A DNA stretch of 64,000 nt from Candidatus Multivoradales bacterium (GTDB lineage Bacteria; Acidobacteriota; Thermoanaerobaculia; Multivoradales; J023). Under the pieces are notes generated by a model that did no database searches, was not told the DNA's origin, and saw only the letters and a list, made by a program, of their open reading frames with translations. The DNA lies in contig CBDFLE010000005.1 in NCBI GenBank assembly GCA_965248925.1, positions 2,208,001 to 2,272,000 of the forward strand. The letters run 5' to 3'. The position numbers were made by a program, and so were the translations under genes. Shown piece after piece: positions 3,001-62,282 of this stretch; positions within the stretch are counted from its first letter, which is position 1, and each line of letters starts with the position of its first letter.

Positions 3001-6000
3001 GCCGCGGGCCAGGCCAACCCCGGCCAAGCACAGCTCGCCGACCACCCCCAGCGGCACTGGCCACAGCTCACCATCCACCAGATGAGTGCGCAGGTTGGCG
3101 ATCGGCCGACCGATCGGCACCCCAGCCTCAACATCCTCCGCGGTGCAAGTCCAGGCGGTCACCTCGATCGAGGCTTCAGTGGGTCCGTATAGATTGTGCA
3201 AGGGCACCGATCCCAGGCGGCGGCGATAGCTGCTCAGCAGCTCTGCCGACAACGCCTCACCGCTGGCCAGCACCCCCCGCAGGCTGGCGCAATGTCTCTC
3301 GATATCGGCGCTGGCCAGGAAAGCGCTCATCATCGACGGCACGAAGTGCACATGGGTGATCCGCCAGCGGGCCAAGGTCCGCTTCAAATACTCCGCATCA
3401 CCGTGCGCTTCAGGCCGCGCCAGATAGAGGGTGGCACCGGCGATCAGCGGCCAGAACAGCTCGTTGACCGACACATCGAAAGTCACCGGCGTCTTCTGCA
3501 ACCAGCGATCCGCTGCCACGAGGGGCATCGTCGTCTGCCCCCAGAGCAGCCGGTTGACCACTCCGCGATGAGAATTCATCACCCCCTTCGGCCGGCCGGT
3601 CGAGCCCGAGGTGTAGATCACGTAGGCCAGCTGGTCGGGGTCAGGACGCTGGAGGGCCGGCACCCGGAGCGCCGCCGACGGCGAAGCGGCGCTGTCGAGC
3701 AAGACCAGCTGGCGTTCGCTCGCCCAGCGCGAGGCCCACTTGGATTGGCTCAGCACCACGTCCACGTCGCTATCGTCAAGCATGAACTCCAACCGCTCTT
3801 GCGGATCGCCGGGATCGAGGGGCAAATAGGCAGCTCCGGCCTTCCAGATCGCCAACAGTCCAACCACCAGCTCGACCGAGCGCTCAGCGCAGATTCCCAC
3901 CCGGGTCTCCCGCCCCACACCGAGGTCACGTAGCCGCTGGGCCAGCGATTCACTGCACCGCTCGAGCTCGCCGTAGCTCAGCGCCGCCCGTTCTGAAACC
4001 AGCGCCAAGGCATCCGGATTCGCTACCGCCCGACTGCTGATCAGCTCATGAACACAGCCCTCGGCGGCCTCGAAGACGACCTCAGTATCGAGCTGCTCGA
4101 TCAACACCTGATGCCGCTCCGCCGGTCGCCAGAGAGCCAGTTCGGCGAGCGCCCGGGTGGGATCAGCAAGAGAGTTGGTGAGCAACTCACGGTAGTACGT
4201 CAGCCACCGCTGGGCAGTGACGTCGTCATAAAGGTCGGTGTTGTACTCCAGCTCACAACCCAGCTGGGTGCCATGTTCGGCCGCCGCGAAGGTCAGATCG
4301 AATTTGGCGGTGGCCGCCACCGCGCCGTCGCTCCCCTGCACCTCCAGACCGTCCGCTGGCGGCTCAGCAAGCTGCCGAGCGGCATCCACGGCACTGCGGA
4401 CCCGGGCCTCGGCCGAGAAGTTCATCAACACCTGAAATAACGGCGGGAAGGCCAGGCTGCGATTCGGTTGTAGCTCTTCAACCAACCGCTCGAAGGGCAG
4501 GTCCTGATGATCTTGAGCTTCGACCAGCAGCTCTCGCACCTGGGCGACGATGGCCGCGAAGCAGTCATTCGGCGCACACTGCACGCGGGCCACCACGACA
4601 TTGACGAACAGTCCGATCAAATCCTCCACCTGGCGGTGACGGCGACCGGCAACCGGCAGCCCGACCACCACGTCGCGCTGTCCGCTCAAGCGACTGAGCA
4701 GCATCGCCAGGACGCTGAGGGCAACCGTGAAGGTGGTCACTCGACTGCGCTGGGCGAAGCTCTTCAGCCGGTCGAAACTGGTGGCAGAGAGAGACGAAGC
4801 GATGCCCGCGCCGCGGAACGTCTGCACCGCAGGGCGCCGCCTGTCGGTCGGTAGCTCGAGCCGTTCCGGCGCCCCCGCTAGACGCTGGCGCCAGTAACTC
4901 AACAGCCGCTCCAAGCGCTCTCCACTGAGCCAGCGGCGCTGCCAGGAGGCGAAATCCGAATACTGCAAGCGAGGTTCTTCGAGCACTGGCGGATCGCCGG
5001 CGGCAAAGGACTGGTAGAGTTCCTCCAACTCGCGTTCCAACACCGACATCGACCAACCGTCAGAGAGGATGTGGTGCAAGGTGATCAGCAAACGGTGGCG
5101 CTGCTGGTCGATCCGCAGCACCTGCCAGCGACTGGTCGGGCCGCGTTCGAGGTCGAGAGCAGCGCTGGCTTGCTGAGCGGCGATACGGTCGGCCTGGCGG
5201 TCGCCGGCCGGCGACCGTAGGCGGCTGAGATCGATGCAGGTCAAGCCGACTGCCGAAGGTGGGTCGACGCAAACGCTGGGCCGCCCCTGGGAAGTGATGG
5301 GAAAGCGCGAGCGCAGCACCTGGTGGCGCCGCAGGAGTTCATACACCGCCCGGCGCAAGGCGCCCAGGGCGAGGCCTCCTTCGAGCCCGACGGAGTACGG
5401 CATGTTGTAGGCCGGGCTGTCCGGCTCCATCAAATGGAGGAACCACAGCCGCTCCTGGGCATAGGATAGCTGCGCCGGTTGGCTTTGCCCTCGAGCGGCG
5501 GCCAGAGAGCCGATCAGCGGCTCGAGCTGCAACTCCCATCCATCTTCCTCAGCCACCCCTCTGGACTCCAGAGTCGCCGCCAATCCAGCGATCGTCGGAT
5601 GTTCGAAGAGACTCGCCAGCGGCACCGCTCGACCGAGTTCCTGCTCGACTCGATTGAGCAGCCGAACCGCCACCAACGAGTGTCCGCCGAGCTCGAAGAA
5701 GTTCTCTCCGATAGCGACCGTCGGACGCTCCAACACCTCGCTCCAGATCTCCGACAAGACCTGCTCCAGAGCCGTGCGGGGGGCTTCCAAGCGAGCGTTC
5801 TCGAGCGGCTCCAGGGCGAGCAGAGCGCGACGGTTGAGCTTGCCGTTGGCGGTCAGTGGCAGCTCGTCGAGCAGTCGGTAAGCAGTCGGTAGCATGTAGA
5901 CCGGCAGAGCCACCTCAAGAGCTCCGCGCAGGCTGTCCAGGGTGCTGCGTTGATCATTCTCCGACGGCCTCTGGGCCAGCGGCTCAGCCGGCACCACAAA

Positions 6001-9000
6001 GGCCAGCAAACGCGGCGTGGAGCCCTCCTCTACCGCAGCCAGGACAACCGCCGACCGTACTGCGGCCAAACTCTCGAGAGTGCGCTCGATCTCCCCCAGC
6101 TCGACCCGGAAACCGCGAATCTTGAGCTGCTGATCGATCCGCCCGAGAATCTCGATTTCACCTGCGGCCGAATGGCGGGTCAAGTCACCGCTGCGATAGA
6201 GGCGACCACCGGGGTGGGCGGCGAACGGATCGGGGACGAAGCGCGCAGCGGTCAGAGCCGGCGAACCGCCATACCCCCGGGCCAGTAGCCCTCCCGCCAA
6301 CGCCAGCTCACCAGCGATCCCCGGAGCCACCGGCCGCAGCCAGCGATCCAGCACATAGGCCCGGCAACCGGGGAGCGGCCGCCCGATCGGCACCGCAGCG
6401 CTACCACCCCCGCGCGGTGACTGGCTGGTCAACACCCCGACGGTGGTCTCGCTGGGGCCGTAGTGATTGATCAGCAGGCACTCGGGAGCGAGCCGTTCGA
6501 GTTCGGCCCACAACTCCCAGGTCGAGGCTTCGCCGCCGAGGATAAGGCGCCGACGGGGCAGCGCATCCGCCGGCCTGTCGCCCTTCAGCAACTCGGCGAG
6601 GTGGGTCGGAACGATCTTCAAACAATCGATCGGATGGCGCTGGAAGTAGCTCTCAAAAGCCGCCGCGTCGGTCACCGTCTGATACGGCAAAACGTGCAGC
6701 ACAGCGCCGTTGACCAGGGCTGGGAAGAGCATGGTATTGCCCAGATCAGCGCCGAAAGTCGAGACCATCGCATACGAACGGCAGTGGCGCAGCTGCAGCC
6801 GCTCGATCACCGCCCAGCAGTAGCCCATCAGCTGGGCGTGGCCCACCTGCACCCCTTTCGGCAGACCACTGGAGCCGGAAGTGAAGATCACATAGGCCAG
6901 AGCGTCACCACCGAGTTCGCCGACCGGTTCGAGCACGCCGCCATCGAAATCCTCGAATTCCTGCCAGCAGGCATCGATCACCACCGCCGCCCGGCGCACC
7001 CCCGGCGGTAAGCCATCGACCAGCTCGGCGGCGGATAGAAGCAGTGGATTTGCCGCCTCGTCGAGGATCGCCGCGACCCGAGCGAGGGGCTGGCGGGGAT
7101 CGATCGGCAGGTAAGCGCCGCCGGCCTTGAGCACCGCCAGAAGAGCGACCACCATGCTGCTCGAACGCTCGAGCCACAGCGCCACCGGCACTTCCGGTCC
7201 AACCCCGCGGCGGCGCAGGAAGCGGGCCAATTGGTTGGCTCGGCGATCGAACTCGCCATAGCTCAGCTGGGTGTCGGCGGCCACCACCGCGATCGCCTGC
7301 GGCCGCTCAGCGGCATGGGCCTCCACCCACTGGTGGAGCTGGCGCGACGGCTGGACGCTGCCGGTGTCGTTCCATTCCTCGAGCAGCGTGTGGCGTTCGC
7401 CGCGACTCAGCAGGTCGACTTCCACCGGCAGCAGCGCCGGGTCGGAGATCAGCGCCCGCAGCAGACGTTCGAAGCGCGCCAACCACCCCTCAACCGTCTC
7501 AGCGCTGAACAGGTCACGGTCATATTCCAGCTCACACTGCCAGCTCGGGCCGCTGTTGACCGTCATTTTCAAGTCGAACTTGGCCCACCCGGTCGCCACC
7601 CCATAGGCATCGGCGGCATAGTTGCCAGGCTCCCCGGCCGCATTCGCGGCAGCCTCTCCGAGCGCTCCGAAGTTCGCCTCGTGGAACGAAAAGAGGGTTT
7701 GAAACAACGGCGTGTAGGAACGGTCACGCTCCGGTCGCAACTCCTCGACCAGCTTGTCGAAAGGCAAGTCTTGGTGCAAATGGGCATCGAGGGTGTGCTC
7801 GCGAACCATCCGGATGAGCGACCGGAAGGCCCGCTCACCGACTCCCCTGCTGCGGATCACCAGGGTATTGACGAAGAAACCGATCAAAGGCTCGAGCTGA
7901 CGATGGTGGCGGCCGGCGATCGGCGTCCCCACTGACAGATCAGCCTGACCGGTCAAGCGGGCCAGCAGAGCTTTGTAGGCCGCCAACATGACCATGAACG
8001 GCGTCGCGCCCTCGGTCCGCGCCAACTCTTCGATAGCCTCGACCAGCGTGGCTTCAAGCTCCAGCCGGGCGTAGCCGGCACGGTGGCCCTGGACCTTGGG
8101 GCGCGGCCAATCGAGGGGTAGTCGCAGCATCTTGGGCGCCTCGGCCAGGCGCTCTTGCCAGTAGGCGATTTCCGCCTCCAGCACCTCCCCCGCCAGCCAG
8201 CCTCGCTGCCAACCGGCGTAGTCGCCGTACTGCAACTCAAGCGCTTCGAGGGGCGAAGGGAGGCCGGCGGCGAAGGCCCGGTAGAGCGCCGACAGCTCAG
8301 CCCGCAAGATGTCGAGAGACCAACCGTCGGAGACGATGTGGTGCATTGCCACCAACAGCAAATGCTGCCGCGGAGTGAAGCGCAGCAAGCTCTGGTAGAG
8401 CATCGGACCGCGGCTCAGATCAAAGACCTTGAGCCGATGAGCGGCGGCCAGGCAGTCACCTATCGCCGTTCGATCGGCGGCTTCCAGATGGCTCAGATCG
8501 ATCAGCGGTAGGACCGCCACCGGCCCCTCGTCCAGCACTTGCTCGAGGGCATCCTGACCCATTTCTAAGCGACCCCGCAGCACCTCATGGCGACTCACCA
8601 CCGCGGCAAAAGCGCGCCCCATGGCGGCGGGATCGATGGCTCCTTCGAGGCGGACCTCGAACGGTATGGTGTAGAGAGGGCTTGCCGGAGCCAGTTGATC
8701 GAGCAACCACATCCGTTCCTGAGCGAACGAAGCGCGGCGGCGAACAGCGGGCGGCAGAGCCACCATCGGCGGTCGTTCGGCCTGCTGGCCAGCGCCCCGA
8801 GCCTGCTTCACTCCGGCCGCCAGTTGCCGGATGGTCGGCGACTCAAAGAGCACCCGCAGCGGCAGCTCGACCGCACAGGTCTCCCGCAACCGAGACATCA
8901 GCTGGGTGGCCATCAGCGAGTGACCACCGAGGGCAAAAAAGTCGTCTTCCACGCCAACCTCGGCGAGGCCCAGAACTTCCTTCCACAGGCCGACCAACAG

Positions 9001-12000
9001 CTCCTCTACCGCGGTCCGCGGCGGACTAGCTTCGCCACCGCGCAGCGCCACTTCTTCGAGCTGCCGACGCCGTAGCGCCGCGGTGTCGATCTTGCCGTTG
9101 GGGTTGAGCGGCAACTCCGGCAGCAGAACGTAACTCGCCGGCTGCATATAGGGTGGCAACTGCCGCGCCACAGCGCTGCTCAAGCTACGTTCGAGGCGGT
9201 CGTTGCGCGCTGCCTCCACATCGCCACCGGGAACTACGAACGCCACCAACTGGCGATCGGCCTGCTCACCCACCGGTAGCACAAAGGCCGCCGCCACCCC
9301 TTCCTCGGCCTCCAGCACGACGGCAATCTCGCTCGGCTCGATGCGGAAACCACGAATCTTGACTTGCTGATCGATCCGGCCCAAGAATTCCAGCTCGCCG
9401 CCGTGTTGCCGGCGCAGCCAATCGCCGCTACGGTAGAGCCGCTGCCCGGGCAGGTCGGTAAAGAGGGCCGGAACGAAGCACTCGGCGGTCAACGCGGGTC
9501 GGTTCCAATAGCCCCGCGCCAACCCCTGGCCGCCGATCCACAGCTCGCCGCCGACCCCCAGCGGCGCGACCTGCCCGCCGGCCCCGACCAAGTGCAGCGA
9601 GGTGTTGGCGATCGGCAGGCCGATCGGCACGGTCCTGGAACCCTCCTGCGGTAGCTCGGACACCACCTGCCAGGAAGCGAAAGTAGTGCATTCGGTAGGG
9701 CCGTAGACGTGCAACAAACGCAAGCTCGGCGAGGCCGCCAGCACCGTGCCCACCGACCGCGGATCGCAAGCTTCGCCGCCGAAGAGGACAGTCCGCAAGG
9801 TGGCGAGAGCCGCCGGTTGCAGCCGCGCCACCAGATTGAACACCGAGGTGGTGAGGAAGGCATGGTCGACCCGCTGCCGGCGCAGAACTCGCGCCAGACG
9901 ATCCGGCGCCAGCAGCTCCGACTGCTCGATTCCGACCACCTGCCCGCCCCCCAACAACGGCCCCCAAAGCTCGAAAGTGGCGGCGTCAAAGGAGGCGGTC
10001 GAAGCCTGGGCAACGCGCTCGCCGGAGCCCACCCGCAGGTAGTCGGTATTCAACAATAGGCGCAGAATGCCGGCCTGCGGCACCGCCACTCCCTTCGGCC
10101 GGCCGGTCGAGCCCGAGGTGTAGACGATGTAGGCTAGGCTCGCAGGTGGCGCCGCAACACCAGTCTCGATCGCCGAACCGGCCTCGATCGCCGACCAATC
10201 ACGGTCGAGGCAGAGCACCGTGACGCCAGCAGCCGGCAACCGCGTGGCCCCAGCCTGCTCGGTGACCAACACGCTCAAATCGGCGTCTTCGATCATCCAG
10301 CGCAGGCGCTCCTCGGGATAGGACGGATCGAGGGGCACGTAGGCGGCACCGGCTTGGACGATGCCGAGCATACCGACCAGCAGATCGGGCGAGCGCTCGA
10401 CACTGAGCCCAACCCGATCCTCGCGGCCGACCCCGAGTCCCGCCAGGCTGCCGGCCAGCAAGGCGGCACGGCGGCGCAGCTCGCCGTAGCTCAGCCACCG
10501 CTCGCCGTAACTCACCGCCGCCGCATCGGGCCGCGACCGAACTTGCTCCAGGAAGCAGCCGGCCAGGGTCAGTGGCGGCAAGGTGGCGGCCGCGTCGTTG
10601 AACTCCAGCAACAGCTGATGGCGCTCGGCGGCGGCGAGCAGCGGAACCGCGGAGAGTTTCAACGCCGGCACCTCGCTCCAAGCCTCGACCAGACCGCCGA
10701 ACTGCCGCAGCAGCCGCTGTATCGATACTCGGTCGAACAACTGCCGATCAAATTGCGCGCCCACCACGGCCCCGTCAGCGGTGACGGTCAAGGTCATCGA
10801 GAGGTCGAATTTAGTGGTCGCTTCAGCGCGGCTCCAGGGCTCGACTTCGATCCCCGGTACGGCGCCAGCGCGCTGCTCTTCCGGCCCCTGATCGTCGAAG
10901 CTGAAAGTGGTTTGGAACAGCGGCGTCAACGATAAATCCCGCCGCGGTTCGAGCTCCTCGACGAGGCGTTCGAAGGGCACCTCCCGGTGGGCGTAGGCTT
11001 CCAGCGCCAGCGATCGGGTGCTCTCCAGATGGCTAGCGAGGTTGGGGTCTGAGCCCAGCTCGGCGCGCAGCACCAGGGTGTTGACGAAGAAGCCGATCAA
11101 GCCCTCGGTCTCGGGCTGGTCGCGACCCGCCACCGGCGTGCCGACCACCACATCGCGCTGGCCGCAAATGCGCGCCAGCAGTCCTTGGTAAAGGCCCATG
11201 AAAGCCATGAAGTCGGTGGCGCCAACTCTCCGGGCGTGCTCGCGAAAGCGGAGGATCGAAGCCTCTGGCAGCCGCAACTCGCAGCCACCGGCCGGATAGC
11301 GGCGGCGCATCGGGCGCGGCCGATCAAGCGGGAGTTCAAGCCGCGCCACGCCGGCCAGTCGCCGCCGCCAGTAGTCCACTTGACGCTCGAGCAGCTCACC
11401 GCTCAGCCACTGCCGCTGCCAGATCGAGTAGTCGGCGTAGTGCACCGTCAGCGGCGCCAAGGGCGCCGGCCGGCCGGTGCTGGCGGCGGCGTAGAGGGCG
11501 GTCAGCTCGCGCCACAAGATATCGATCGACCAGCCGTCGGAGACGATGTGGTGCATGACCACCGCCCAGAGATGGTCGCCATCTCCGAGGCGGACCAGCA
11601 AGGCGCGGATCAGCGGCCCGTGGGCGAGGTCGAAGGGCCGCCGGACCACATCGGCAAGGCAGACCTCGGCCGCCGAGTTCGCCACCTCGCGCTCGAGGGC
11701 CGAGAGATCGACCACAGCACCGCCAGCGGCGGTCGGCGGCAGAATTTGTTGCACCGGCGACGGTCCGTCGCTACGGAACACGGTGCGCAGGCTTTCGTGC
11801 CGCTCGATCGCCGCCGCCAGCGCCGATCGCAATGCCGCGACGTCGAGCTTTCCCCGCAACCTTACCGCCAGCGGCATGTTGTAGGCGGTGCTGTCCGGAT
11901 CGAGCTGGTCGATCAACCACAGTCGCTGCTGAGCGAAAGACAGCGGCACCTGGTCGCCGCGTTCGAGCGCCAGCAAAGGTGGCCGCGCCAGGCTGTCGCC

Positions 12001-15000
12001 GACCTGTCCGGCCGCCACCGCCGCCGCCAGCTGGCGGATGGTTGGGCCGTCAAAGATGGTGCGTAGTTCGAGGTCAACCTCGAACTGGCGCCGCAGGCTG
12101 GAGATCACTCGGGTCGCCAGGATCGAGTGGCCACCGAGTTCGAAGAAGCTTTCCGTAGTGCCGACCACGTCGAGCCCGAGCAGCTCCTGCCACAGCTCGG
12201 CGATGGTCTGCTCGACCGGCGTGCGCGGCAGCTGCCGCTCGACCGCCCGCAGCATGCCAAAACGCTGCGGCGCCGGCAGAGCGGCGCGGTCCAGCTTGCC
12301 ATTCGGCAACAGCGGCAGCTCTTCGAGCTGGATCCAGGCCGCCGGCAGCATGTGCTCTGCCAGGTCGGGCGCCAGATGCTCTAGCAGCTGGTCGAGGGTC
12401 AGCTGATTGTCGCTGACCCCATAGGCCACCAGCCGCCGATCTCCAGGCTCATCCTGGCGGGCGATCACCACCGCGGCGCGGATCTTCGGATGCTCTAGGA
12501 TGCGCGCCTCGATTTTGCTGAGCTGGATCGGGAAGCCGCGAATACTGACCTGGGAGTCCAGCCTGCCGAGCAACAGCAAGGCTCCATCTAGCCGCCGACG
12601 AGCCACATCACCAGTGTGGTAGAGCCGCTCTCCCCAGGCCCCCGGTCGTGGGTCGGGCACGAAGGACTCGGCGGTCAGAGCCGGGCGCCCAGCATAGCCG
12701 CGGGCCAGGCCGACGCCGCCGATGTGGAGCTCACCGGCAACGCCGATCAGCGCCGGCTGCAGCTCTGGGGTCATGACGTCGAGGCGCAGGTTGGCGATCG
12801 GCCGGCCGATCGGTACGGCGCCGGATTCCTCTGCGGCGCCGCAACGCCAGGCGGTGACGTCGATCGCCGCCGAGGTGGGACCGTAGAGATTGTGTAGGTC
12901 GCAGTCCAGGCGGCGGCGGAAGTCCGCCACCAGGTCGGCCGGCAAGGCCTCGCCGCTGGAGATCACCCGCCGCAGCGAAACGCCGCGACGCTCTAATTCA
13001 CTGGCGGTCAGGAATCTACGCAATAGGGACGGCACAAAATGCAGCGTGGTGATGCGCTGCTGCTCAATCAGCTGCGCCAGCTGTCGCCCATCGCCCTGCC
13101 CACCCGGTAGCCCCAGCACCAACTCGGCGCCACTGAGCAACGGCCAGAAAACCTCCCATACCGAAACATCGAAACTTATCGGCGCGGTCTGCAACAGCCG
13201 GTCACCGAGCCCGACGGGGAAGGCCGATTGCATCCACAATAAGCGATTGACGATCGCCCGGTGGCTAATCATCGCCCCCTTCGGCTGGCCGGCCAGGCCC
13301 GCCGTGTAGATGACGTAGGCCAACTGATCGTCATCGATGGCAAGTCTGGGCTGGAGCTGGGAGCCGGTCTCTGGCCACGGCCGGTCGAAGCACAGAATCG
13401 CCGGGCCGTCTTCAGGCAATCGATCGAGCAGATCGCTGTGGCCCAAGACCAGCTCCACCGCACTGTCTTCGATCATGTAAGCGAGTCGATGCTGCTGATC
13501 CTCGGGGTCGAGGGGCACGTAGGCGGCGCCAGCACGGAGTACACCGTGCAGCGCGATCACCAGCTCCAGCGAGCGCTGCAAGCAGACCCCGACCCGGCTT
13601 TCCGGCCTGATCCCCTGGGCGCGCAGGCGGTCGGCCAGGCACTTGCTACGGCGATCAAGCTCGCCATAGCTCAAGGCGGTGGCGCCACAACGGATCGCGA
13701 CCCGCTCGGGCCAGCGCCGCGCGGCTCGCCACAAGAGCTCCGCCAGGCTGAGCTCAGCTCCCTCGAGTCGCTGCTGGGTATCGTTCCACTCGCTGATCAC
13801 CTGCTGGCGTTGAGGCGGCGGCAACAGCTCGCCGCTGGAGTGCGAGTCGTCTGGGGTGAAGGCCATCGCCAACAGCGTTCTGCGATAGACCTCGGCCACC
13901 CCGCGGACTTGCGCGGCGGTCAACTGATGGCTGTCGTACTCGAAGCTGAGATAAACCCGAGTGGACTCGAAGTCGCGGCTGAAATGGGCCAGCAGCGGAA
14001 AATCGGCGCCTTCTCGCTTGCGGAAGCCGAGCACCTCGACGTCGCCGCTGTCGAGCACTTCCTGGACGACGTGGAAGTAGATGTAGTTGAACGCCACCTC
14101 GTACAGGGGCCGGTCATGCAGCCGGCGCTGCAGCACGGCGAAGGGAAAGCGCCGGTGCGGCAGCAGCTCGGTCTCGCGGCGGAAAGTCCGCGCCACCAGG
14201 TCGCGCCAGGAACCAGCGCCGAGATGCAGCCGGAAGGGCAAGGTGTTGAGGAACAGGCCACGCACTTGATCACCGCCGCGCTCCTCCAAGCGGCCGTTCC
14301 AGACCACCCCGGTGACCACGTCCTGCTGACCGGTAACGCAGCCCAACGCCTTCAGGTGGGCGGCCAGTAAGACACTCTTGAGCGGCGCTCCCACCGCCAC
14401 CCCCAACGCCTTCAGGCCATGGCTGACGGCGGGGCCAAAATCGAGATCGACGTTGCGCATCCGTGGTCGGAGCCCGGCCTTGGCCAGTCCCAGACGCGGA
14501 ACCTCGGTCAACGGGCTATCCTCCAGTGCCCGGCGCCAAAACTCTTCGGCCTCGGGCGAGCGGATGGCCTGCTGCTCGAGCTGGATGAAGTCGCGGTAGC
14601 CGACGCTGGGCAGCTCGGGCTCGGCCGGCTCCTCGCCTTCGAGCAGACGGAAATAGAACTCGAAGATCTCCGCCAAGGTCGAGTGTAGGCTCCAGCCGTC
14701 GAAGATGGCGTGGTTTTCGGTCAGCATGAACTCGAAGCTGTCCGCAGCGCGCAGGCAGACGTGGAAACGCAGCTGCGGCACCTTGGTGAAATCGAAGCGA
14801 TGCCGCTTCTGCGCCGCCATCAGCGCCTGCACCCGCGCCTCCTGCTGCTCTGGGGTCAGCCGCCGCAGGTCGAGGATCGCGGTCGCCAGCTCCGCTTGCC
14901 GATGCACCAGCTGTAGGGCCTTGCTGAACCCGGTCAGGTGGAAGGAGGTCCGCATCACCGGGTGCCGCGCCACCACCCGCGCCACTGCCCGGCGGAATGG

Positions 15001-18000
15001 CCCGGCCTCGAAACGGGCCCGCAAATGCCAACTGTCCACGTTGTGGTACAGCGGATCCTCAGGGGTCAGCTCCATGTGGTACAACATGCCTGCCTGCAGC
15101 ACGCTCAGCGGATAAGCGTCTTCGACATCGGCCGGCAGCAGCCGCCGATCCGACTCCGAGACCAGGCCCAGCGGCCCCACGCGGGCCGCTGGCTCCGCCG
15201 CTCTAGACCCCGCATCGCCGTCCTTCGCCAGCGCCGCCACCAGGGCACCGATGGTCTGGTGGCGGAAGAGATCCGGCAAGCTCAGCTGCACCCCCTCCTC
15301 GGCCGCTCGCGCCAACACCCGCAGGCTAAAGATCGAGTCGCCGCCGAGAGCAAAGAAGTTGTCCTCCACCCCCACCCGATCGACCCCCAGCACCTCCGCC
15401 CACACCGCCGCCAAGATCCATTCTGTAGGATGCCGCGGCGCCACGTACTCGGCGCCACTGGCCAGCCGCTCGCCAGCCTCCGGCTCGGGCAGCGCTCCGC
15501 GATCGAGCTTGCCGTTGGCGGTCAGCGGCATTGACTCCAGCACCACGAACGCTGCCGGCATCATGTAGGCCGGCAGGCGCTCGCCGAGGTGGCCGCGCAA
15601 TGCCTCCAACTCCAGCTCCGCGCCCACCGCCGGCACTACCCAGGCCACCAGTCGCGCGGACTCGGCGCCCGCTTCCTGCCGCGCCAGCACCGCCGCCTCC
15701 GCCACCGCGGCATGCTCGGCCAACGCCGCCTCGATCTCCCCCAGCTCGATGCGAAAGCCCCGCACCTTTACCTGGTGGTCGATCCGACCGAGGTATTCCA
15801 GCTCGCCGCCCGCCAGCCAGCGAGCCAGATCCCCCGAGCGGTAAAGTCTCTCTCCCTCACCCCCGGAGTGAGGATCCGGCACGAAACGGGTCGCGGTCAG
15901 GCTCGGCCGGCCGAGGTAACCCGGCGCCACCCCAGCGCCACCGACCACCATCTCGCCACCCACCCCCTGCGCCACCGGCCCGCCGCGGCAATCCAGCAAG
16001 TACACCCGCAGATCCGCCAGCGCCCGGCCGATGCGGCTGCCGAAGCCCGAGCGCACCTCCGCCTCCAGCAGCCGATGGTAGGTCACATGCACCGTCGTCT
16101 CGGTGATGCCATACATGTTCACCAGGCCCGGCGAAGCATCGCCATACCGCTCCACCCAAGACAACAAGGTCGACGGATCGAGCGCCTCACCACCAAATAC
16201 CACCCAACGCAACGCCAGCTCGGTGGGACGCTCCGCCGCCACCTGAATGAGCTGGCGGAAGGCCGACGGAGTTTGATTGAGGACCGTCACCCCCTCCCCG
16301 CTCAGCAGCTCCAGGAAGCGCTCCGGCGAACGACTCACCCAATAGGGCACCACCACCAGCCGGCCGCCATAGAGCAACGCGCCCCAGATCTCCCACACCG
16401 AGAAATCGAAAGCGTAGGAGTGAAACAGGGTCCACACATCAGCCTCACCAAAGCCAAAATCGGCCTCGGTCGAAAGCATCAAGCGCAGCACCTGGCGGTG
16501 GCTGACCACCACCCCTTTCGGCCCGCCAGTCGAGCCTGAAGTGTAGATCACGTAAGCGGCTTGGGAGGGATCGCCAGCCACCCAGGAGGGCACTGCCTCG
16601 AAGCTTTCAGTCACCGCCCTCGGCGGCTCGCCAGCGTCGATCTCGAGCACCGTGCCCGCCACCTCAGGTAACCGGGAACGCAGTTCGGCGGTGGTCACCA
16701 GCGCCGTCACGCCACTATCCTCGGCGATGAAGCGCAAGCGCTCTGCCGGCACCTCGGGATCCACCGGCACATAGGCCGCGGCGCAGCGCAGAGTCGCCAA
16801 GATCGCCACCACCACGGACACCTCGCGCAAAAGCAGCAGACCCACGAAGTCCCCCGGTCGAACCCCCGCCGACCACAGCCGGCCCGCCAGTAACTCGGCA
16901 GCCGCCCGCAGCTCCGAGTAGCTCAAGGAGCGCTCTTCGTAGCTCAGAGCCAGGGCTTCAGGGCAGCGCGCGGCGACTGCCGCAAAGGCCTCCCACAACC
17001 CGCCCGCGAGCTCGTAGCTGGCACCGCTACCGCTCCACTCCAGCAGCAGCTCCTGGCGCTCGGCGGCGCTCAGCAATCTCAGCGATCCGAGTTCGGCGGC
17101 GGGATCCTCGGTCACCCCGCGTAGTAGTTGTTCGAAGTAAGCCGTCCAACGACTGATGGTTGAAGCTTCGAACAGGTCGAAGGCGTATTCCAAGCTGCCG
17201 ACCAGCCGACCGCTAGACCAGTGCATTTGCAAGTTGAGGTCGAATTTAGCGGTGCCGGTGGCGGTGCCGAGCGCCGAGATCCTCATCGCCGCGTCACCCT
17301 CCGCTACGGGCCCCTCGACCGACTCACTGCCGCTGTTCTGCACCGCCAGGACCACCTGGAAAATCGGCGTGTGATCGAGAACACGCTCGACCACCAAGTC
17401 GTCGACCAACTTCTCGAAGGGCATTCCCTGATGGTCATAGGTGGCGACCGTGAAGCTCCGCACCTGCCGCAGAAGCTCGGCGAAGTTGGGGTTGGCGCTG
17501 AGATCACCCCGCAGGACCACCATGTTGGCGAAGTAACCGATCAAGGGCTCGGTCTCGGCCAACATGCGACCCGCCACCGGCGCCCCCACCAGGACATCGG
17601 CTTGGCCACTCAGTCGGCTGAGCAGGGCCTGAAAGGCGGCGGTCAGGAGAATGAAAACCGTCGCATCTAGGGACTTCGCCAGCCCTTCGATCGCCACCGA
17701 CAATTCGCGGTCGAGGGCGAAGGGATGGGTCGCACCGCGGTAGGTCATCTCCTGCGGCCGTGGTCGGTCCGTCGGCAGGGGGAGGAAGCGCGGCGCGCCG
17801 GCCAGGGCCTGGCGCCAAAACTCCAGCTCCTGCTCCATCTCCTCCGCGCCCAGCTGCTGCCGTTGCCAAGCGGCGAAGTCGGCGTACTGCACCGGCAGCT
17901 CGGGCAGCGCCGGCATCTCGCCGGCCTGCTGGCCCAGGTACACGCTGCCGACTTCGCGAATCAAGATCTCGCTGGACCAACCATCGGTCAGCAAATGATG

Positions 18001-18534
18001 CAGGGTCAGCATTACCAGATGCTCGCCCGCCGCCAGGCGGACCAACGACACCCGCAGCGGCGGCCCGGCGCCGAAGTCGAACGGTCGGCGAGCATCGGCC
18101 GCCACCAGCGCCTCGCCGATCCGCCGCGCCTGTTGCAAGCTCAGCCGTGAAAGGTCGACCTGGGGAAGCTCGATCCGCTGCCGGCTTTGAATCTCCTGCA
18201 CCGGCGAGCCATCGACTTCAAAGAACCGGCTGCGCAGGATCCCGTGACGCTCGATGACCACGGTCAAAGAACGTGACAGCAACCCAACATCAAGCCGGCC
18301 GACCAGCCGAAACGGGCTGGGGATGTTGTAGACCGCCGTCCCCGGCGTCAAGCGCTCGAGGAACCAGAGTCTCAGCTGAGTGAAAGACAAGGGTGCCGGC
18401 CCGGACTCTCGCCGCACCGGGATGGTCGCAGCGGGCTGCTCTCGCAAGCGCTTCTGCTGCAACATCTTCAGCAGCAGGCGCCGCTTGGCCTTGGGTAGAC
18501 CTTCAAGGCGATCCAGGGTTCGCGAAGTGGTCAA
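1..18534 (-). CDS. Giant multimodular NRPS, 3'-truncated by the window (>6178 aa): C-A(Thr)-T-C(modAA)-A*(degenerate)-T-C-A(Ile)-T-C-A(Asp)-T-C-A(Ser-like)-T-C-A(partial)
   Basis: Not in the ORF track, most likely because no stop occurs in the window. A TTG at 18534 overlaps the upstream TGA (TTGA) and follows an AGAGGAG RBS. It translates MTTSRTLDRLEGLPKAKRRLLLKMLQQK...LSFTQLRLWFL. Manual spot translation in the same frame gives HHLLTDGWS (~17990), GGDSIF (~15340), TENHAIFDGWS (~14700), FDAATFELW (~9980), ADLGNTML (~6745), FDVSVNEL (~3470) and FLTTSVFNLL...YGGEAADP at the left edge. Confidence 0.93.
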   Translation of the reverse strand, partial: MTTSRTLDRLEGLPKAKRRLLLKMLQQKRLREQPAATIPVRRESGPAPLSFTQLRLWFLERLTPGTAVYNIPSPFRLVGRLDVGLLSRSLTVVIERHGILRSRFFEVDGSPVQEIQSRQRIELPQVDLSRLSLQQARRIGEALVAADARRPFDFGAGPPLRVSLVRLAAGEHLVMLTLHHLLTDGWSSEILIREVGSVYLGQQAGEMPALPELPVQYADFAAWQRQQLGAEEMEQELEFWRQALAGAPRFLPLPTDRPRPQEMTYRGATHPFALDRELSVAIEGLAKSLDATVFILLTAAFQALLSRLSGQADVLVGAPVAGRMLAETEPLIGYFANMVVLRGDLSANPNFAELLRQVRSFTVATYDHQGMPFEKLVDDLVVERVLDHTPIFQVVLAVQNSGSESVEGPVAEGDAAMRISALGTATGTAKFDLNLQMHWSSGRLVGSLEYAFDLFEASTISRWTAYFEQLLRGVTEDPAAELGSLRLLSAAERQELLLEWSGSGASYELAGGLWEAFAAVAARCPEALALSYEERSLSYSELRAAAELLAGRLWSAGVRPGDFVGLLLLREVSVVVAILATLRCAAAYVPVDPEVPAERLRFIAEDSGVTALVTTAELRSRLPEVAGTVLEIDAGEPPRAVTESFEAVPSWVAGDPSQAAYVIYTSGSTGGPKGVVVSHRQVLRLMLSTEADFGFGEADVWTLFHSYAFDFSVWEIWGALLYGGRLVVVPYWVSRSPERFLELLSGEGVTVLNQTPSAFRQLIQVAAERPTELALRWVVFGGEALDPSTLLSWVERYGDASPGLVNMYGITETTVHVTYHRLLEAEVRSGFGSRIGRALADLRVYLLDCRGGPVAQGVGGEMVVGGAGVAPGYLGRPSLTATRFVPDPHSGGEGERLYRSGDLARWLAGGELEYLGRIDHQVKVRGFRIELGEIEAALAEHAAVAEAAVLARQEAGAESARLVAWVVPAVGAELELEALRGHLGERLPAYMMPAAFVVLESMPLTANGKLDRGALPEPEAGERLASGAEYVAPRHPTEWILAAVWAEVLGVDRVGVEDNFFALGGDSIFSLRVLARAAEEGVQLSLPDLFRHQTIGALVAALAKDGDAGSRAAEPAARVGPLGLVSESDRRLLPADVEDAYPLSVLQAGMLYHMELTPEDPLYHNVDSWHLRARFEAGPFRRAVARVVARHPVMRTSFHLTGFSKALQLVHRQAELATAILDLRRLTPEQQEARVQALMAAQKRHRFDFTKVPQLRFHVCLRAADSFEFMLTENHAIFDGWSLHSTLAEIFEFYFRLLEGEEPAEPELPSVGYRDFIQLEQQAIRSPEAEEFWRRALEDSPLTEVPRLGLAKAGLRPRMRNVDLDFGPAVSHGLKALGVAVGAPLKSVLLAAHLKALGCVTGQQDVVTGVVWNGRLEERGGDQVRGLFLNTLPFRLHLGAGSWRDLVARTFRRETELLPHRRFPFAVLQRRLHDRPLYEVAFNYIYFHVVQEVLDSGDVEVLGFRKREGADFPLLAHFSRDFESTRVYLSFEYDSHQLTAAQVRGVAEVYRRTLLAMAFTPDDSHSSGELLPPPQRQQVISEWNDTQQRLEGAELSLAELLWRAARRWPERVAIRCGATALSYGELDRRSKCLADRLRAQGIRPESRVGVCLQRSLELVIALHGVLRAGAAYVPLDPEDQQHRLAYMIEDSAVELVLGHSDLLDRLPEDGPAILCFDRPWPETGSQLQPRLAIDDDQLAYVIYTAGLAGQPKGAMISHRAIVNRLLWMQSAFPVGLGDRLLQTAPISFDVSVWEVFWPLLSGAELVLGLPGGQGDGRQLAQLIEQQRITTLHFVPSLLRRFLTASELERRGVSLRRVISSGEALPADLVADFRRRLDCDLHNLYGPTSAAIDVTAWRCGAAEESGAVPIGRPIANLRLDVMTPELQPALIGVAGELHIGGVGLARGYAGRPALTAESFVPDPRPGAWGERLYHTGDVARRRLDGALLLLGRLDSQVSIRGFPIQLSKIEARILEHPKIRAAVVIARQDEPGDRRLVAYGVSDNQLTLDQLLEHLAPDLAEHMLPAAWIQLEELPLLPNGKLDRAALPAPQRFGMLRAVERQLPRTPVEQTIAELWQELLGLDVVGTTESFFELGGHSILATRVISSLRRQFEVDLELRTIFDGPTIRQLAAAVAAGQVGDSLARPPLLALERGDQVPLSFAQQRLWLIDQLDPDSTAYNMPLAVRLRGKLDVAALRSALAAAIERHESLRTVFRSDGPSPVQQILPPTAAGGAVVDLSALEREVANSAAEVCLADVVRRPFDLAHGPLIRALLVRLGDGDHLWAVVMHHIVSDGWSIDILWRELTALYAAASTGRPAPLAPLTVHYADYSIWQRQWLSGELLERQVDYWRRRLAGVARLELPLDRPRPMRRRYPAGGCELRLPEASILRFREHARRVGATDFMAFMGLYQGLLARICGQRDVVVGTPVAGRDQPETEGLIGFFVNTLVLRAELGSDPNLASHLESTRSLALEAYAHREVPFERLVEELEPRRDLSLTPLFQTTFSFDDQGPEEQRAGAVPGIEVEPWSRAEATTKFDLSMTLTVTADGAVVGAQFDRQLFDRVSIQRLLRQFGGLVEAWSEVPALKLSAVPLLAAAERHQLLLEFNDAAATLPPLTLAGCFLEQVRSRPDAAAVSYGERWLSYGELRRRAALLAGSLAGLGVGREDRVGLSVERSPDLLVGMLGIVQAGAAYVPLDPSYPEERLRWMIEDADLSVLVTEQAGATRLPAAGVTVLCLDRDWSAIEAGSAIETGVAAPPASLAYIVYTSGSTGRPKGVAVPQAGILRLLLNTDYLRVGSGERVAQASTASFDAATFELWGPLLGGGQVVGIEQSELLAPDRLARVLRRQRVDHAFLTTSVFNLVARLQPAALATLRTVLFGGEACDPRSVGTVLAASPSLRLLHVYGPTECTTFASWQVVSELPQEGSRTVPIGLPIANTSLHLVGAGGQVAPLGVGGELWIGGQGLARGYWNRPALTAECFVPALFTDLPGQRLYRSGDWLRRQHGGELEFLGRIDQQVKIRGFRIEPSEIAVVLEAEEGVAAAFVLPVGEQADRQLVAFVVPGGDVEAARNDRLERSLSSAVARQLPPYMQPASYVLLPELPLNPNGKIDTAALRRRQLEEVALRGGEASPPRTAVEELLVGLWKEVLGLAEVGVEDDFFALGGHSLMATQLMSRLRETCAVELPLRVLFESPTIRQLAAGVKQARGAGQQAERPPMVALPPAVRRRASFAQERMWLLDQLAPASPLYTIPFEVRLEGAIDPAAMGRAFAAVVSRHEVLRGRLEMGQDALEQVLDEGPVAVLPLIDLSHLEAADRTAIGDCLAAAHRLKVFDLSRGPMLYQSLLRFTPRQHLLLVAMHHIVSDGWSLDILRAELSALYRAFAAGLPSPLEALELQYGDYAGWQRGWLAGEVLEAEIAYWQERLAEAPKMLRLPLDWPRPKVQGHRAGYARLELEATLVEAIEELARTEGATPFMVMLAAYKALLARLTGQADLSVGTPIAGRHHRQLEPLIGFFVNTLVIRSRGVGERAFRSLIRMVREHTLDAHLHQDLPFDKLVEELRPERDRSYTPLFQTLFSFHEANFGALGEAAANAAGEPGNYAADAYGVATGWAKFDLKMTVNSGPSWQCELEYDRDLFSAETVEGWLARFERLLRALISDPALLPVEVDLLSRGERHTLLEEWNDTGSVQPSRQLHQWVEAHAAERPQAIAVVAADTQLSYGEFDRRANQLARFLRRRGVGPEVPVALWLERSSSMVVALLAVLKAGGAYLPIDPRQPLARVAAILDEAANPLLLSAAELVDGLPPGVRRAAVVIDACWQEFEDFDGGVLEPVGELGGDALAYVIFTSGSSGLPKGVQVGHAQLMGYCWAVIERLQLRHCRSYAMVSTFGADLGNTMLFPALVNGAVLHVLPYQTVTDAAAFESYFQRHPIDCLKIVPTHLAELLKGDRPADALPRRRLILGGEASTWELWAELERLAPECLLINHYGPSETTVGVLTSQSPRGGGSAAVPIGRPLPGCRAYVLDRWLRPVAPGIAGELALAGGLLARGYGGSPALTAARFVPDPFAAHPGGRLYRSGDLTRHSAAGEIEILGRIDQQLKIRGFRVELGEIERTLESLAAVRSAVVLAAVEEGSTPRLLAFVVPAEPLAQRPSENDQRSTLDSLRGALEVALPVYMLPTAYRLLDELPLTANGKLNRRALLALEPLENARLEAPRTALEQVLSEIWSEVLERPTVAIGENFFELGGHSLVAVRLLNRVEQELGRAVPLASLFEHPTIAGLAATLESRGVAEEDGWELQLEPLIGSLAAARGQSQPAQLSYAQERLWFLHLMEPDSPAYNMPYSVGLEGGLALGALRRAVYELLRRHQVLRSRFPITSQGRPSVCVDPPSAVGLTCIDLSRLRSPAGDRQADRIAAQQASAALDLERGPTSRWQVLRIDQQRHRLLITLHHILSDGWSMSVLERELEELYQSFAAGDPPVLEEPRLQYSDFASWQRRWLSGERLERLLSYWRQRLAGAPERLELPTDRRRPAVQTFRGAGIASSLSATSFDRLKSFAQRSRVTTFTVALSVLAMLLSRLSGQRDVVVGLPVAGRRHRQVEDLIGLFVNVVVARVQCAPNDCFAAIVAQVRELLVEAQDHQDLPFERLVEELQPNRSLAFPPLFQVLMNFSAEARVRSAVDAARQLAEPPADGLEVQGSDGAVAATAKFDLTFAAAEHGTQLGCELEYNTDLYDDVTAQRWLTYYRELLTNSLADPTRALAELALWRPAERHQVLIEQLDTEVVFEAAEGCVHELISSRAVANPDALALVSERAALSYGELERCSESLAQRLRDLGVGRETRVGICAERSVELVVGLLAIWKAGAAYLPLDPGDPQERLEFMLDDSDVDVVLSQSKWASRWASERQLVLLDSAASPSAALRVPALQRPDPDQLAYVIYTSGSTGRPKGVMNSHRGVVNRLLWGQTTMPLVAADRWLQKTPVTFDVSVNELFWPLIAGATLYLARPEAHGDAEYLKRTLARWRITHVHFVPSMMSAFLASADIERHCASLRGVLASGEALSAELLSSYRRRLGSVPLHNLYGPTEASIEVTAWTCTAEDVEAGVPIGRPIANLRTHLVDGELWPVPLGVVGELCLAGVGLARGYGGLAARTATSFVPNPWARVAGERLYRTGDLVSSRTDGVIDYLRRIDHQVKVRGFRIELGEIECLLKGAPGVARAVAVVRRHDTLGNRIFAYVVPSPALPSSGSAGDLRSSLLDVLEQHLPPYMVPTGIAVLSELPLLANGKLDRQALPDVGEPVAAELMSSPRDAVEMEVVEIYQKLLGRSAVGIHQSFFELGGHSLVAVRLQAQIQQRFEQDLPLASFFEHATVASLAEVLRQGSTGEPAWALPPLVLMAADQRRTLSFAQRRLWLLDRLDPGSPTYNMAYAVDLGEAVDRPALGWAWHQVLRRHEVLRSRFPEVADEPSVEIEPLPAAYAVPLVDLAGLEPRDGQLQAGRWASELARRPFDLQAGGLLRWTLLSLGGSGYRLLVSMHHIVSDGWSLGLLQQELTEFYRGAVSGRAPRWVELPIHYGDYAAWQQQWLSGDLLESEIDYWRQRLDGAAEFLELPADRPRGGLMRSRSAACTRQISAAVTTDVLAFAHQNRATPFILTLAVFQLLLGRYTGMLDFSVGTPISGRHRHELHHLIGLFVNTLVMRAQWAPGDTFEELFLRLRAEVLQAHQHQDLPFDLLVQELRPERALGRTPLFQAMFTYSAAAANAEAPADDGAATNPGGLDTVSSGLAKFEWSLQVAEVGGHFSCLLEYDREIFDRSTAARFLGHFENLLGQVVQRPTQTLAAIDLLAAAERHQLLVEHNDTRSWIERDLSISQLLAQHSARQPQAIVASYGDASLSFAELDRRASLVAGALQRRGVGLESRVGLSIERSLELLVAMVGVLKAGAAYVPLDPGYPAERLRLMMSDVGVSVLVTSEDLLERLPTAAIEVLCLDRDWPEIEAGEAVDRSAEVQPAQLAYIMFTSGSTGQPKGVAIPHLAILRLVRNTDYVDPRAGERTAQASTASFDAATLEFWMPLLNGGQLVGIDSQVLVSPQRLADSLARLRIDHMFLTTSVFNLLIRDRPAAFRGLQTLIYGGEAADPRAVRAAHQA
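12270..13800 (-). other. Degenerate (probably inactive) Ser-family adenylation domain
   Basis: A3 YTAGLAGQPKG, A5 YGPTSAAID and A8 GRLDSQVSIRGFPIQLSKIE all deviate at conserved residues. The pocket residues still read DVWHISLIDK. Confidence 0.8.
13850..15130 (-). other. Modified-amino-acid (modAA, dehydrating-type) condensation domain
   Basis: AYPLSVLQAGMLYH...RHPVMRTSFHLTGFSKALQLVH...KRHRFDF...FEFMLTENHAIFDGWSLHSTLAEIF. It follows a Thr module whose T has the GGDS motif. The pattern matches the McyA/AmbE/NocB-related modAA clade rather than LCL. Boundaries approximate. Confidence 0.75.
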
Positions 18535-61194: not shown

Positions 61195-62282
61195 GGCCGG
61201 CCGCTGACCTCCTCGCCAATCTCGATCTGGCTATCGATGTCCTGCCACGAACGCGGCTCGGCCATGCCGACGGCAATCTTCCGCGGCCCCGCGAAGGGCT
61301 GCCGGCCGTGCGCCACCAACATGTTGTCGAGCAGCAGAATGTCTCCCTTCTGCCAAGGAAAGGCGACGGTCTCGGCGTGGTATGCCTGGCGCAGCTCCTC
61401 GAGAGTCTCGGCGGCGATCGGCCCACCGTCTCCGAAGTAGCTGTTGCTCGGCAGGTCGGCCTCCGAGAACTCCTCCAACAAAGCGTCGCGGGCGATCGTT
61501 TCAAGGGTCGAGACGTTGAAGATCGTGGCGTGATTGAACCAAGTCAGCTCGTCGGTGACCGGATGCCGGGCGATCGCCGAGCGAACTGCTTCAGTGCGCA
61601 AACGCCCTTCCGCTTTCCACTCGACCGCGATCCCATGACCGGCGCAGTAGTCCTCGACCACAGTTCGGTCTTCGGTCTGGAAAACGGTCTGCCACGGCAG
61701 CCCGAAGCCATCTCCGAAATTGCGGCGATACATCCATTGGCGTTCTGAGAAACGTTTTTTAGTGGCCTCGGACAGCCGCTGATAAACCCGTCGGCAGTCG
61801 GCGATCGGCGTCTCACCACCGGTTGCCGGTGGGATCACACAGAAAAAGAAAATTCTCAGCGGAAAGCTACTCTGATAGGAGTTTTCGTTGTGCAAGAAGA
61901 TCGTCTGATCGGCCGGAAAGTCGGTCGAAGAGTAGATCTTGCCAGTGATCTGGGAACGCGGCGAGGAGCGCTCCTTGTACTCCAAAGCGCTACCGGACAC
62001 CGCTTCGATAAAATTTTCGAACTGCTCCTCGGTGTCGACATCAAAACCACGGAAAAGGATACCTCCGTGATGACAGAGCTTCTCCTGCAGCAGCGGGCGT
62101 TGGCGGCGCGCCCACTCGATCAACGCCACGCTGCCCGGCTCCGCCGGCTCGATCAGCAATGGCAGGAGTCCTTCTGCGAACAATGGCCGCATGGTCACCA
62201 GCTCGCCCGAGGTCACGCTCATGACCCGGCGGCGGGAGCCGCTGATTCCCGCCTGTAGGTGTTTGGGCAATGGTTTCTTCAT
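61191..62282 (-). CDS. TauD/TfdA-family Fe(II)/2-oxoglutarate dioxygenase, SyrP-like aminoacyl-PCP beta-hydroxylase
   Basis: 363 aa with GGILFRGF, SSPRS, FLHNENSY (H-x-E), GGETPIAD, WFNHA and LLLDNMLVAHGR (distal His). This motif set is typical of SyrP/AspH-like NRPS-associated hydroxylases. GAGGA RBS upstream. Confidence 0.93.
   Translation of the reverse strand: MKKPLPKHLQAGISGSRRRVMSVTSGELVTMRPLFAEGLLPLLIEPAEPGSVALIEWARRQRPLLQEKLCHHGGILFRGFDVDTEEQFENFIEAVSGSALEYKERSSPRSQITGKIYSSTDFPADQTIFLHNENSYQSSFPLRIFFFCVIPPATGGETPIADCRRVYQRLSEATKKRFSERQWMYRRNFGDGFGLPWQTVFQTEDRTVVEDYCAGHGIAVEWKAEGRLRTEAVRSAIARHPVTDELTWFNHATIFNVSTLETIARDALLEEFSEADLPSNSYFGDGGPIAAETLEELRQAYHAETVAFPWQKGDILLLDNMLVAHGRQPFAGPRKIAVGMAEPRSWQDIDSQIEIGEEVSGRP

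Follow-up and report, generated by a model that had tools for sequence, protein, structure and literature searches.

A putatively inactive adenylation domain retained behind a dehydrating condensation domain in a nonribosomal peptide synthetase line of a Candidatus Multivoradales bacterium

Inactive adenylation (A) domains within nonribosomal peptide synthetase (NRPS) lines are already known, if uncommon. Those of the albicidin, cystobactamid, ramoplanin and enduracidin lines are complemented in trans (PMC8949500), the first A domain of PyrG, with neither the catalytic Lys nor the A3 residues, was demonstrated to be inactive (PMC10510592), and the keto-acid module of the dolastatin 15 synthetase retains an inactive 'Ax' A domain (PMC13643306). 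Here, an A domain predicted to have lost its catalytic function is described from a Candidatus Multivoradales bacterium (NCBI GenBank assembly GCA_965248925.1, contig CBDFLE010000005.1). The stretch analyzed, called the window throughout, comprises 64,000 nucleotides (G000:C5:2208001-2272000) and belongs to a minus-strand NRPS cluster that spans about 102 kb (C5:2193436-2295791). The domain, designated A*, comes second among the A domains encoded by the cluster's last NRPS gene and is located between a condensation (C) domain of the dehydrating C(modAA) type, designated C*, and a carrier (T) domain, designated T2.

Like A*, the affected domains of the albicidin, cystobactamid, ramoplanin and enduracidin lines are in-module A domains with poorly conserved core motifs in combination with a working carrier and a working line. 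In contrast to them, A* follows a C domain of the dehydrating type and has an active Ser-type A domain of its own cluster as a recent paralog, and the dedicated, trans-acting stand-alone A-T (or A) gene of the albicidin and ramoplanin type was not seen for the A* cluster. The PyrG domain of pyridomycin biosynthesis was likewise recognized as non-functional by the loss of A3 residues, but there the catalytic Lys is lost and an active tandem partner is present in the module, whereas in A* the Lys is retained and the module contains no active partner. The dolastatin 15 Ax domain is comparable as a retained inactive A domain with a carrier loaded by another adenylating enzyme; that module, however, has a built-in 2-keto-acid AMP ligase domain, and nothing comparable is present at A*. 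C(modAA) domains dehydrate the donor ahead of condensation, and AmbE-C2 does so on the carrier T1, after which the product is transthioesterified to a second carrier without an A domain of its own (PMC10880069). The AmbE C2-T2 arrangement (7r9x) therefore shares with C*-A*-T2 a C(modAA) domain followed by a carrier that no A domain of its own serves, with dehydration on the upstream carrier, but it has no A domain between C2 and T2 and a thioesterase (TE) after T2, whereas here an eroded full-length A* is present and an LCL-type C domain (C3) and eight more modules follow. McyA module 2 (8jbr), the best solved match of C*, likewise follows a Ser/Thr module and is ordered C(modAA)-A-T, but its A domain is active and its RGxR motif contacts the C domain, whereas A* reads RGFP and is without the A3 and A5 residues. 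In McyA2 it is the second Arg of the A8 RGxR that touches the C domain, its exchange (R2132A) cuts adenylation by 60%, and the 'bottom interface' between A core and C domain forms a stable platform (bioRxiv 10.1101/2023.11.13.566838).

The complete frame of the gene (G000:C5:2193436-2226546) encodes 11,037 amino acids (aa) in 10 modules and is free of stops. It begins with the domain order C, A (Thr-type), T1, C*, A*, T2, C3, which is followed by eight C-A-T modules. The features in question are listed below in window coordinates.

1..18534, minus strand: open frame, 6,178 codons that form the 5' part of the cluster's last NRPS gene
15487..17064, minus strand: A domain of module 1, code DFWNVGMVHK (Thr-type), motifs canonical
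15235..15447, minus strand: T1, carrier domain of the FFALGGDSI type
13855..15219, minus strand: C*, C(modAA)/dehydrating-type C domain, active site NHAIFDG at 14695-14715, clade motif KSVLLAAH at 14356-14379
12274..13812, minus strand: A*, A domain with eroded catalytic motifs and Ser-type pocket code DVWHISLIDK
13276..13308, minus strand: A3 phosphate-binding loop of A*, YTAGLAGQPKG compared with TSGSTGxPKG (Ser to Ala, Ser to Leu, Thr to Ala)
12871..12891, minus strand: A5 of A*, NLYGPTS (reading on as NLYGPTSAA), the invariant Glu being Ser (codon 12871-12873, TCG compared with GAA in both paralogs)
12607-12621, minus strand: A7 of A*, YHTGD, ordinary (translation)
12508..12567, minus strand: A8 of A*, GRLDSQVSIRGFPIQLSKIE (Lys to Ser, second Arg of RGxR to Pro, Glu to Gln, Gly to Ser, Glu to Lys; hinge R-x-D...G kept)
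12289..12315, minus strand: A10 of A*, PLLPNGKLD with the catalytic Lys kept, then an LPAP linker (translation)
12010..12243, minus strand: T2, carrier domain, FFELGGHSI with its Ser present at 12121-12147 (PF00550, 63.8 bits)
10681..12027, minus strand: C3, LCL-type C domain with MHHIVSDGWS, to which the chain from T2 goes (tree of the cluster C domains)
25284..26843, minus strand: Ser-type A domain in the preceding gene, with code DVWHISLVDK and canonical motifs; at 57.6% identity the closest relative of A*

The A8 Lys has its role in the second half-reaction, and in PheA the A5 Glu is said to be a Mg ligand. The A3 motif (S/T)(S/T)G(S/T)TGxPK binds the nucleotide phosphates (PMC10510592), and in a Ser-activating domain a water bridge was found to link the invariant A5 Glu with the alpha-phosphate, next to the Mg site (PMC8244413). 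A* would accordingly have lost the residues that hold the ATP phosphates in A3, the Mg/alpha-phosphate Glu in A5 and the Lys, Arg and Glu positions of A8, with its core fold kept. The A8 stretch, which has also been quoted as QVSIRGFPIQLSKIE, retains with RLDSQVSIRG a hinge that matches Rx(D/K)xxxxxxG, and reads RGFP at the RGxR position. The A3 Lys, both A3 Gly, the A4 Asp, the A7 Asp and the LPxP linker are retained as well, and an eleventh motif replacement is found in A9 (LAEHMLP compared with LPxYMxP). The pocket code DVWHISLIDK, taken from profile-aligned columns, is identical in 15 of 59 other Ser-type domains. The initial annotation of this DNA had described A3, A5 and A8 as eroded together in an apparently dead A domain with an intact pocket, A10 and T domain, behind a dehydrating C domain and among A domains with largely canonical motifs. 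All motifs it quoted were recovered in the minus-strand translation of window 1-18534, and its description was borne out by the comparisons that follow.

The extent of the erosion was determined with a profile built from the genome's own A domains, to which 270 complete A domains were aligned (56 belonging to this genome and 214 to loci retrieved by a search with A*), and was scored as the number of changes at eight key columns in A3, A5 and A8. A* is changed at all eight. Among the 269 others, 254 show no change, nine show one, one shows two and five show three, the latter five being N-terminal starter domains of the LQYTSGS...PKG type with a different A8; Ser172 and Glu316 are kept in every one of the 269. 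The 55 other complete A domains of this genome comprise 53 without any changed key column and two with one. Moreover, no more than three of the eight key columns are changed in any of 1,093 further complete A domains (proteins P0002-P0271), in which the A5 Glu is kept in all but one (1,092/1,093). At 61 columns with at least 90% conservation A* deviates 10 times, compared with a median of 1, and although seven other domains deviate at more of these columns (12 to 21), all seven keep Ser172 and Glu316, and six of them stand at the N-termini of frames, five of these six being the starter-type domains mentioned above. The deviations of A* fall on 8 of 21 conserved columns in A3, A5 and A8 and on 2 of 40 elsewhere (Fisher p = 0.0019, with a grouping that was chosen post hoc, after the data had been seen). 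The erosion of A* is thus specific, unique among the domains compared and far beyond chance. Furthermore, compared with the two paralogs, at least 18 nucleotides differ in the codons of the eleven motif replacements, and the exchange of Glu to Ser differs at all three codon positions, which indicates that the changes are old and arose in multiple steps.

The sequence of A* is no slip of the deposited assembly. In each of four public runs a separately built contig spans 12010-13800 with no other letters and no gaps (word depths 4.3, 23.5, 12 and 2.2), and the four runs represent one sample, probably the source of this DNA, rather than independent samples. Apart from this shared origin no point in favor of a sequencing or assembly artefact was found; the agreement of the four contigs, down to a word depth of 2.2, and the nature of the changes, which are in-frame replacements of several nucleotides per codon confined to the motifs, make such an artefact extremely improbable.

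The domains on either side of A* are intact. The best solved matches of C* are McyA (8jbr; 2.4e-102, 346 bits) and AmbE (7r9x; 1.1e-58, 202 bits), the next one outside the microcystin synthetases being at 2e-33, and C* falls into a local C(modAA) clade of 25 domains that is delimited by a score gap (at least 187 bits inside and at most 150 outside); in the tree of the cluster C domains it is sister to the DCL clade. A motif-like C(modAA) signature is [K/R]SVLLAAH before C5, with a strict DG, a usual second His and a first His that is missing in 7 of 50 (PMC11342130, corallorazine paper). C*, with NHAIFDGWS, keeps the second His and the DG and has Asn in place of the first His, as do both paralogs in the genome, which precede active A domains. 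The A domain upstream of the 25 clade members has a Ser-type code in 15 cases, a Thr-type code in seven and another code in two, and is off the locus in one, where the Thr and Ser assignments of the codes are those that we take to apply. For two of the codes the assignment is supported by a published table (PMC11586506). This preponderance of Ser/Thr-type codes fits dehydration by C* of a Ser or Thr delivered from upstream. C* belongs, on its sequence, to the dehydrating C(modAA) clade, and dehydration itself is predicted. It deviates at 6 of 52 clade-conserved columns, all six conservatively, compared with 0 to 7 in other members. Downstream A domains were in view for 24 clade members. In 23 of these A3, A5 and A8 are canonical over the part covered by the locus (which stops short of A10 in two cases and of A8 in one), and A* is the single eroded one. 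T2 shows no change at any of the 10 conserved columns in a comparison of 27 T domains, and C3 groups as an ordinary LCL-type domain in the tree of the cluster C domains. Thr-C(modAA)-A-T units occur three times in the genome: the cluster described here contains two, and the third belongs to another large NRPS cluster, on contig C6. The two that are paralogous to the A* unit have intact A domains, with the codes DILQLGLVWK and DALQMGVTYK:

C5:2271796-2274975 (region G000:C5:2270311-2278536): paralogous unit with an intact A domain
C6:5152723-5155926 (region G000:C6:5111570-5183467): paralogous unit with an intact A domain

As a separate observation on the carriers, T domains of the GGDSI type make up five of the 27 in the cluster, and each precedes either an epimerization (E) domain (three) or a C(modAA) domain (two). 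This agrees with the report that the dehydrating C clade and the E clade have a carrier type in common (PMC10880069).

The fold of A* is kept. It matches PF00501 (AMP-binding) with 271.9 bits and PF13193 (AMP-binding_C) with 34.3 bits, its best solved matches are NRPS A domains, and the 653.6 bits that it scores with the profile are inside the span covered by the cluster's uninterrupted A domains (498.5-715.3). An AlphaFold2 model of A* (mean predicted local distance difference test score 90.5, predicted template modeling score 0.86) shows that the sequence is compatible with the fold. The Ser-type clade that holds A* comprises 60 domains, 57 of them distinct, and in a maximum-likelihood tree the three Ser-type domains of the cluster form one clade (support 0.993) in which A* pairs with the Ser A domain at 25284-26843 as its sister (support 0.93); A* thus descends from the cluster's own Ser-activating A domain. 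The C*-A* module is a mosaic, being similar to the cluster's other C(modAA) unit up to about residue 1520 and to the Ser A domain from about residue 1581. Since the split, the branch of A* has accumulated 0.70 substitutions per site compared with 0.45 for the sister, and lineage-specific changes number 69 and 42, respectively (p = 0.01). In the core the two domains evolved at nearly the same rate (50 compared with 36 changes, p = 0.13), whereas the mobile C-terminal subdomain changed about three times faster in A* (19 compared with 6, p = 0.009). The ratio of nonsynonymous to synonymous changes (dN/dS) was roughly estimated at 0.224/0.511 (about 0.44) for the A* branch and at 0.152/0.557 (about 0.27) for the sister, with synonymous differences near saturation (proportion pS of 0.55-0.57). 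The asymmetry of rates together with the concentrated hits suggests that the nucleotide-handling residues and the mobile subdomain are relaxed and the core is kept. The pocket code was also considered as a test of selection and discarded as underpowered, about 1.4 changes being expected in its 10 positions (from 69 in 512 sites) and one being seen.

Following this, we propose, with a probability of about 0.6, that A* is a catalytically disabled pseudo-enzyme kept as a scaffold in a working line. The A* core would serve as the structural center of a C(modAA)-A*-T module that is intact in its other parts, and would form a platform with the C domain as in solved modules. Module 1 would charge T1 with Thr, the C(modAA) domain would turn the T1-borne Thr into dehydrobutyrine (Dhb) on the growing chain, T2 would receive its cargo without the help of A*, and C3 would hand the chain to the eight further modules. 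The erosion by at least 18 nucleotide differences in A*, with roughly 9,000 downstream codons intact, argues that the line has probably kept working without catalysis by A*. A role as a scaffold fits the rate asymmetry between core and subdomain, the uninterrupted frame and the nine canonical modules after A*. The initial annotation had already suggested a scaffold, with T2 loaded in trans either by the Ser A domain at about 26 kb or by a free-standing enzyme, or else a non-elongating unit. The scaffold part gains support from the near-equal core rate, the faster subdomain and a dN/dS below 1, whereas the free-standing loader is weakened, as none was seen: no free-standing A or A-T gene was found within about 17 kb of either cluster end and none was recognized elsewhere in the genome. 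The open reading frames (ORFs) in those flanks encode three TauD-family dioxygenases, an ABC transporter, a MacB-like permease, M28 peptidases and a carbamoyltransferase, and every NRPS-type A domain found in the genome sits in an ORF of at least 1,132 aa. The candidates for trans-loading are consequently A domains embedded in synthetases.

With regard to the cargo of T2, its loading by another active A domain, namely the sister Ser A domain (25284-26843), a second upstream Ser A domain or the Thr A domain of module 1, is our tentative first choice, held at well below even odds, and an AmbE-like relay comes close behind it. In support of trans-loading, C* keeps the second His and the DG like the two paralogs in front of active A domains, and the ordinary LCL character of C3 fits an L-aminoacyl end on T2; by their appearance, C* and C3 would require an aminoacyl acceptor and a donor end of L configuration. 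The relay would be a non-elongating variant of the same scaffold reading, in which C(modAA) makes Dhb on T1 and the chain is transthioesterified to the free thiol of T2 behind a fossil A domain, the core of which survives as a platform for the C domain, so that no residue is added and the product of this 27-module lipopeptide line has one residue fewer than there are modules. We consider such an internal relay rather doubtful, though well worth weighing. AmbE-C2 sets a precedent (PMC10880069), T2 is intact in contrast to a skipped carrier, no dedicated loading enzyme is seen nearby, inactivation of an A domain would be the simplest way to lose one residue of a product, and the A subdomain and its RGxR contact with the C domain are relaxed. 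On the other hand, C* is nearer to the condensing McyA2 C domain than to AmbE (346 and 202 bits), at clade-conserved columns it is the same as the two paralogs before active A domains, and in AmbE T2 precedes the TE, whereas here the LCL domain C3 would need to take a conjugated dehydro-acyl donor. Moreover, no internal relay of such kind was found in those parts of the literature that were searched, nor did a description of a C(modAA)-dead A-T module turn up there, although one could still exist in print.

Several observations weigh against A* as a dead scaffold. The loss of activity is predicted from motifs, and A* retains a perfect Ser-type pocket code together with the A4 Asp, the A7 Asp, the hinge of A8 and the Lys of A10, which could mean residual function or a recent inactivation. 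The overall acceleration of A* (69 compared with 42 changes, p = 0.01) is modest and fits a late loss of function too, the near-saturation of synonymous differences leaves dN/dS a rough measure, and the high confidence of the AlphaFold2 model of A* is largely alignment-driven. The missing free-standing A or A-T gene and the common origin of the four runs have to be counted on this side as well, loading in trans from an A domain embedded in a megasynthetase is rare, and T2 shows no special similarity to the T domain served by the sister Ser A domain. Furthermore, no ortholog that might share the eroded state was found in the collections searched, and no match came nearer than the paralog within the cluster. 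A search for C*-A*-T2 in 40 relatives gave 44% identity at best, below the in-genome paralogs (48% and 46%). A protein-homolog search at longer lengths and a representative-protein search listed at least 120 proteins (39-51% identity) and at least 150 proteins (34-49% identity), respectively, with no ortholog among the matches listed; both rank by the score summed over many A domains and are poor at finding the single nearest domain. No ortholog was found in 185,579 species genomes or in metagenome contigs, with best matches of 49% in the former and, at full length, also 49% in the latter, two collections in which records of this genome itself may be missing.

Two further explanations have to be weighed against a disabled A* in a working line, and both are considered improbable to a similar degree. 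A* could still be an active, although unusual or slow, Ser-activating domain, in which case the module would be ordinary. The pocket code shared with 15 of 59 other Ser-type domains, a core near the sister's rate and the retention of the A4 Asp, A7 Asp, hinge, A10 Lys and LPxP linker as well as of the A3 Lys and both A3 Gly would all fit, and the Ser that replaces the A5 Glu could still hold a water. Contrarily, among the 269 and the 1,093 domains compared, none is without both Ser172 and Glu316, and changes at the eight key columns never exceed three; this comparison also upholds, at the level of motifs, the initial description of A* as a domain that looks disabled. The phosphate loop has lost three hydroxyl residues, one of which is now Leu, the first A domain of PyrG is inactive without the A3 residues and the Lys (PMC10510592), and a single Arg to Ala exchange at RGxR already costs McyA2 60% of its activity.

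Alternatively, the line could be broken at the A* module by a recent and uncompensated death of the domain, so that the cluster is decaying or gives a truncated product. This would agree with the failure to find an ortholog in which the eroded state is maintained and with the presence of several other large NRPS clusters in the genome, in view of which one loss might be tolerated. However, the eleven replacements with their underlying nucleotide differences indicate that constraint on these sites was lifted long ago, and over that time the downstream codons kept an open frame and nine A domains stayed canonical. C* and T2 are intact, and the A* core is not evolving neutrally, which likewise speaks against a broken line.

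If A* is dead and the line works nevertheless, the module would be a natural experiment on what an A domain contributes beyond catalysis; it would show whether a dehydrating C domain needs the A core as a platform and by what means a carrier that has no A domain for itself obtains its cargo, with a bearing on A-domain swaps and module deletions in NRPS engineering. Prediction tools that assign one residue per A domain would give Dhb-Ser at the A* module, maybe wrongly. Internal controls are available in the 57.6%-identical active sister in the cluster and in the two paralogous Thr-C(modAA)-A-T units with intact A domains. Should the relay be true, no AmbE-type relay at an internal, non-terminal position would precede it, and it would be a natural deletion of a residue without deletion of a module. 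A* represents a single uncharacterised cluster.

The cluster contains open frames of 5,843, 2,742, 390, 1,939, 1,175, 5,377, 5,823 and 11,037 aa. Profile searches detected 27 NRPS A domains and one starter-type adenylating domain, which we take to be fatty-acyl-AMP-ligase-like, and a pattern search detected 27 T domains. All nine A domains downstream of A* in the 11,037-aa gene have canonical motifs, and the last 188 residues of its product match the thioesterase family weakly (22.5 bits, under the Pfam cut-off of 26.4). The last A domain of the 5,823-aa gene (window 18936-20483, minus strand) is mildly atypical: its A8 reads QQLKINGMRIEPEEIE, with Asn at the first Arg of RGxR, and in its A10, LPRTASRKIDR, Arg replaces the Gly before the catalytic Lys, whereas A3 and the A5 Glu are kept.

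Three genes for TauD/TfdA-family dioxygenases are present on the minus strand, adjoined by the ABC transporter and the MacB-like permease; the one inside the cluster is the 390-aa frame (363 aa counted from the first start codon). These dioxygenases presumably hydroxylate carrier-bound residues, as we assume from similar clusters.

61191-62282, minus strand: TauD/TfdA-family dioxygenase gene inside the cluster
L020:11871-13079, minus strand: TauD/TfdA-family dioxygenase gene just downstream of the cluster
L020:12964-14148, minus strand: TauD/TfdA-family dioxygenase gene just downstream of the cluster
59905-61194, minus strand: divergent C-like domain opening the 1,939-aa frame
50783-52042, minus strand: divergent C-like domain opening the 5,377-aa frame

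The two divergent C-like domains at the start of NRPS genes match the Pfam Condensation family with 87 and 125 bits, HHxxxDG was not found in either, and in the tree of the cluster C domains they group together as a separate clade. In both cases the preceding protein already has a complete terminal C domain and an A domain with an inserted methyltransferase comes next. Possibly both are degenerate C domains that persist as a platform or for docking, and they would then represent a second case of a retained dead domain in the cluster. Finally, the last two modules of the 11,037-aa gene, located outside the window (G000:C5:2194492-2200869, locus L023), contain a tandem duplication of 1,063 codons (3,189 nucleotides) with 98.8% nucleotide identity, the protein being identical in 100-residue windows from about residue 8601 to 9600. 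This points either to a very recent module duplication or to a collapse or expansion in the assembly.

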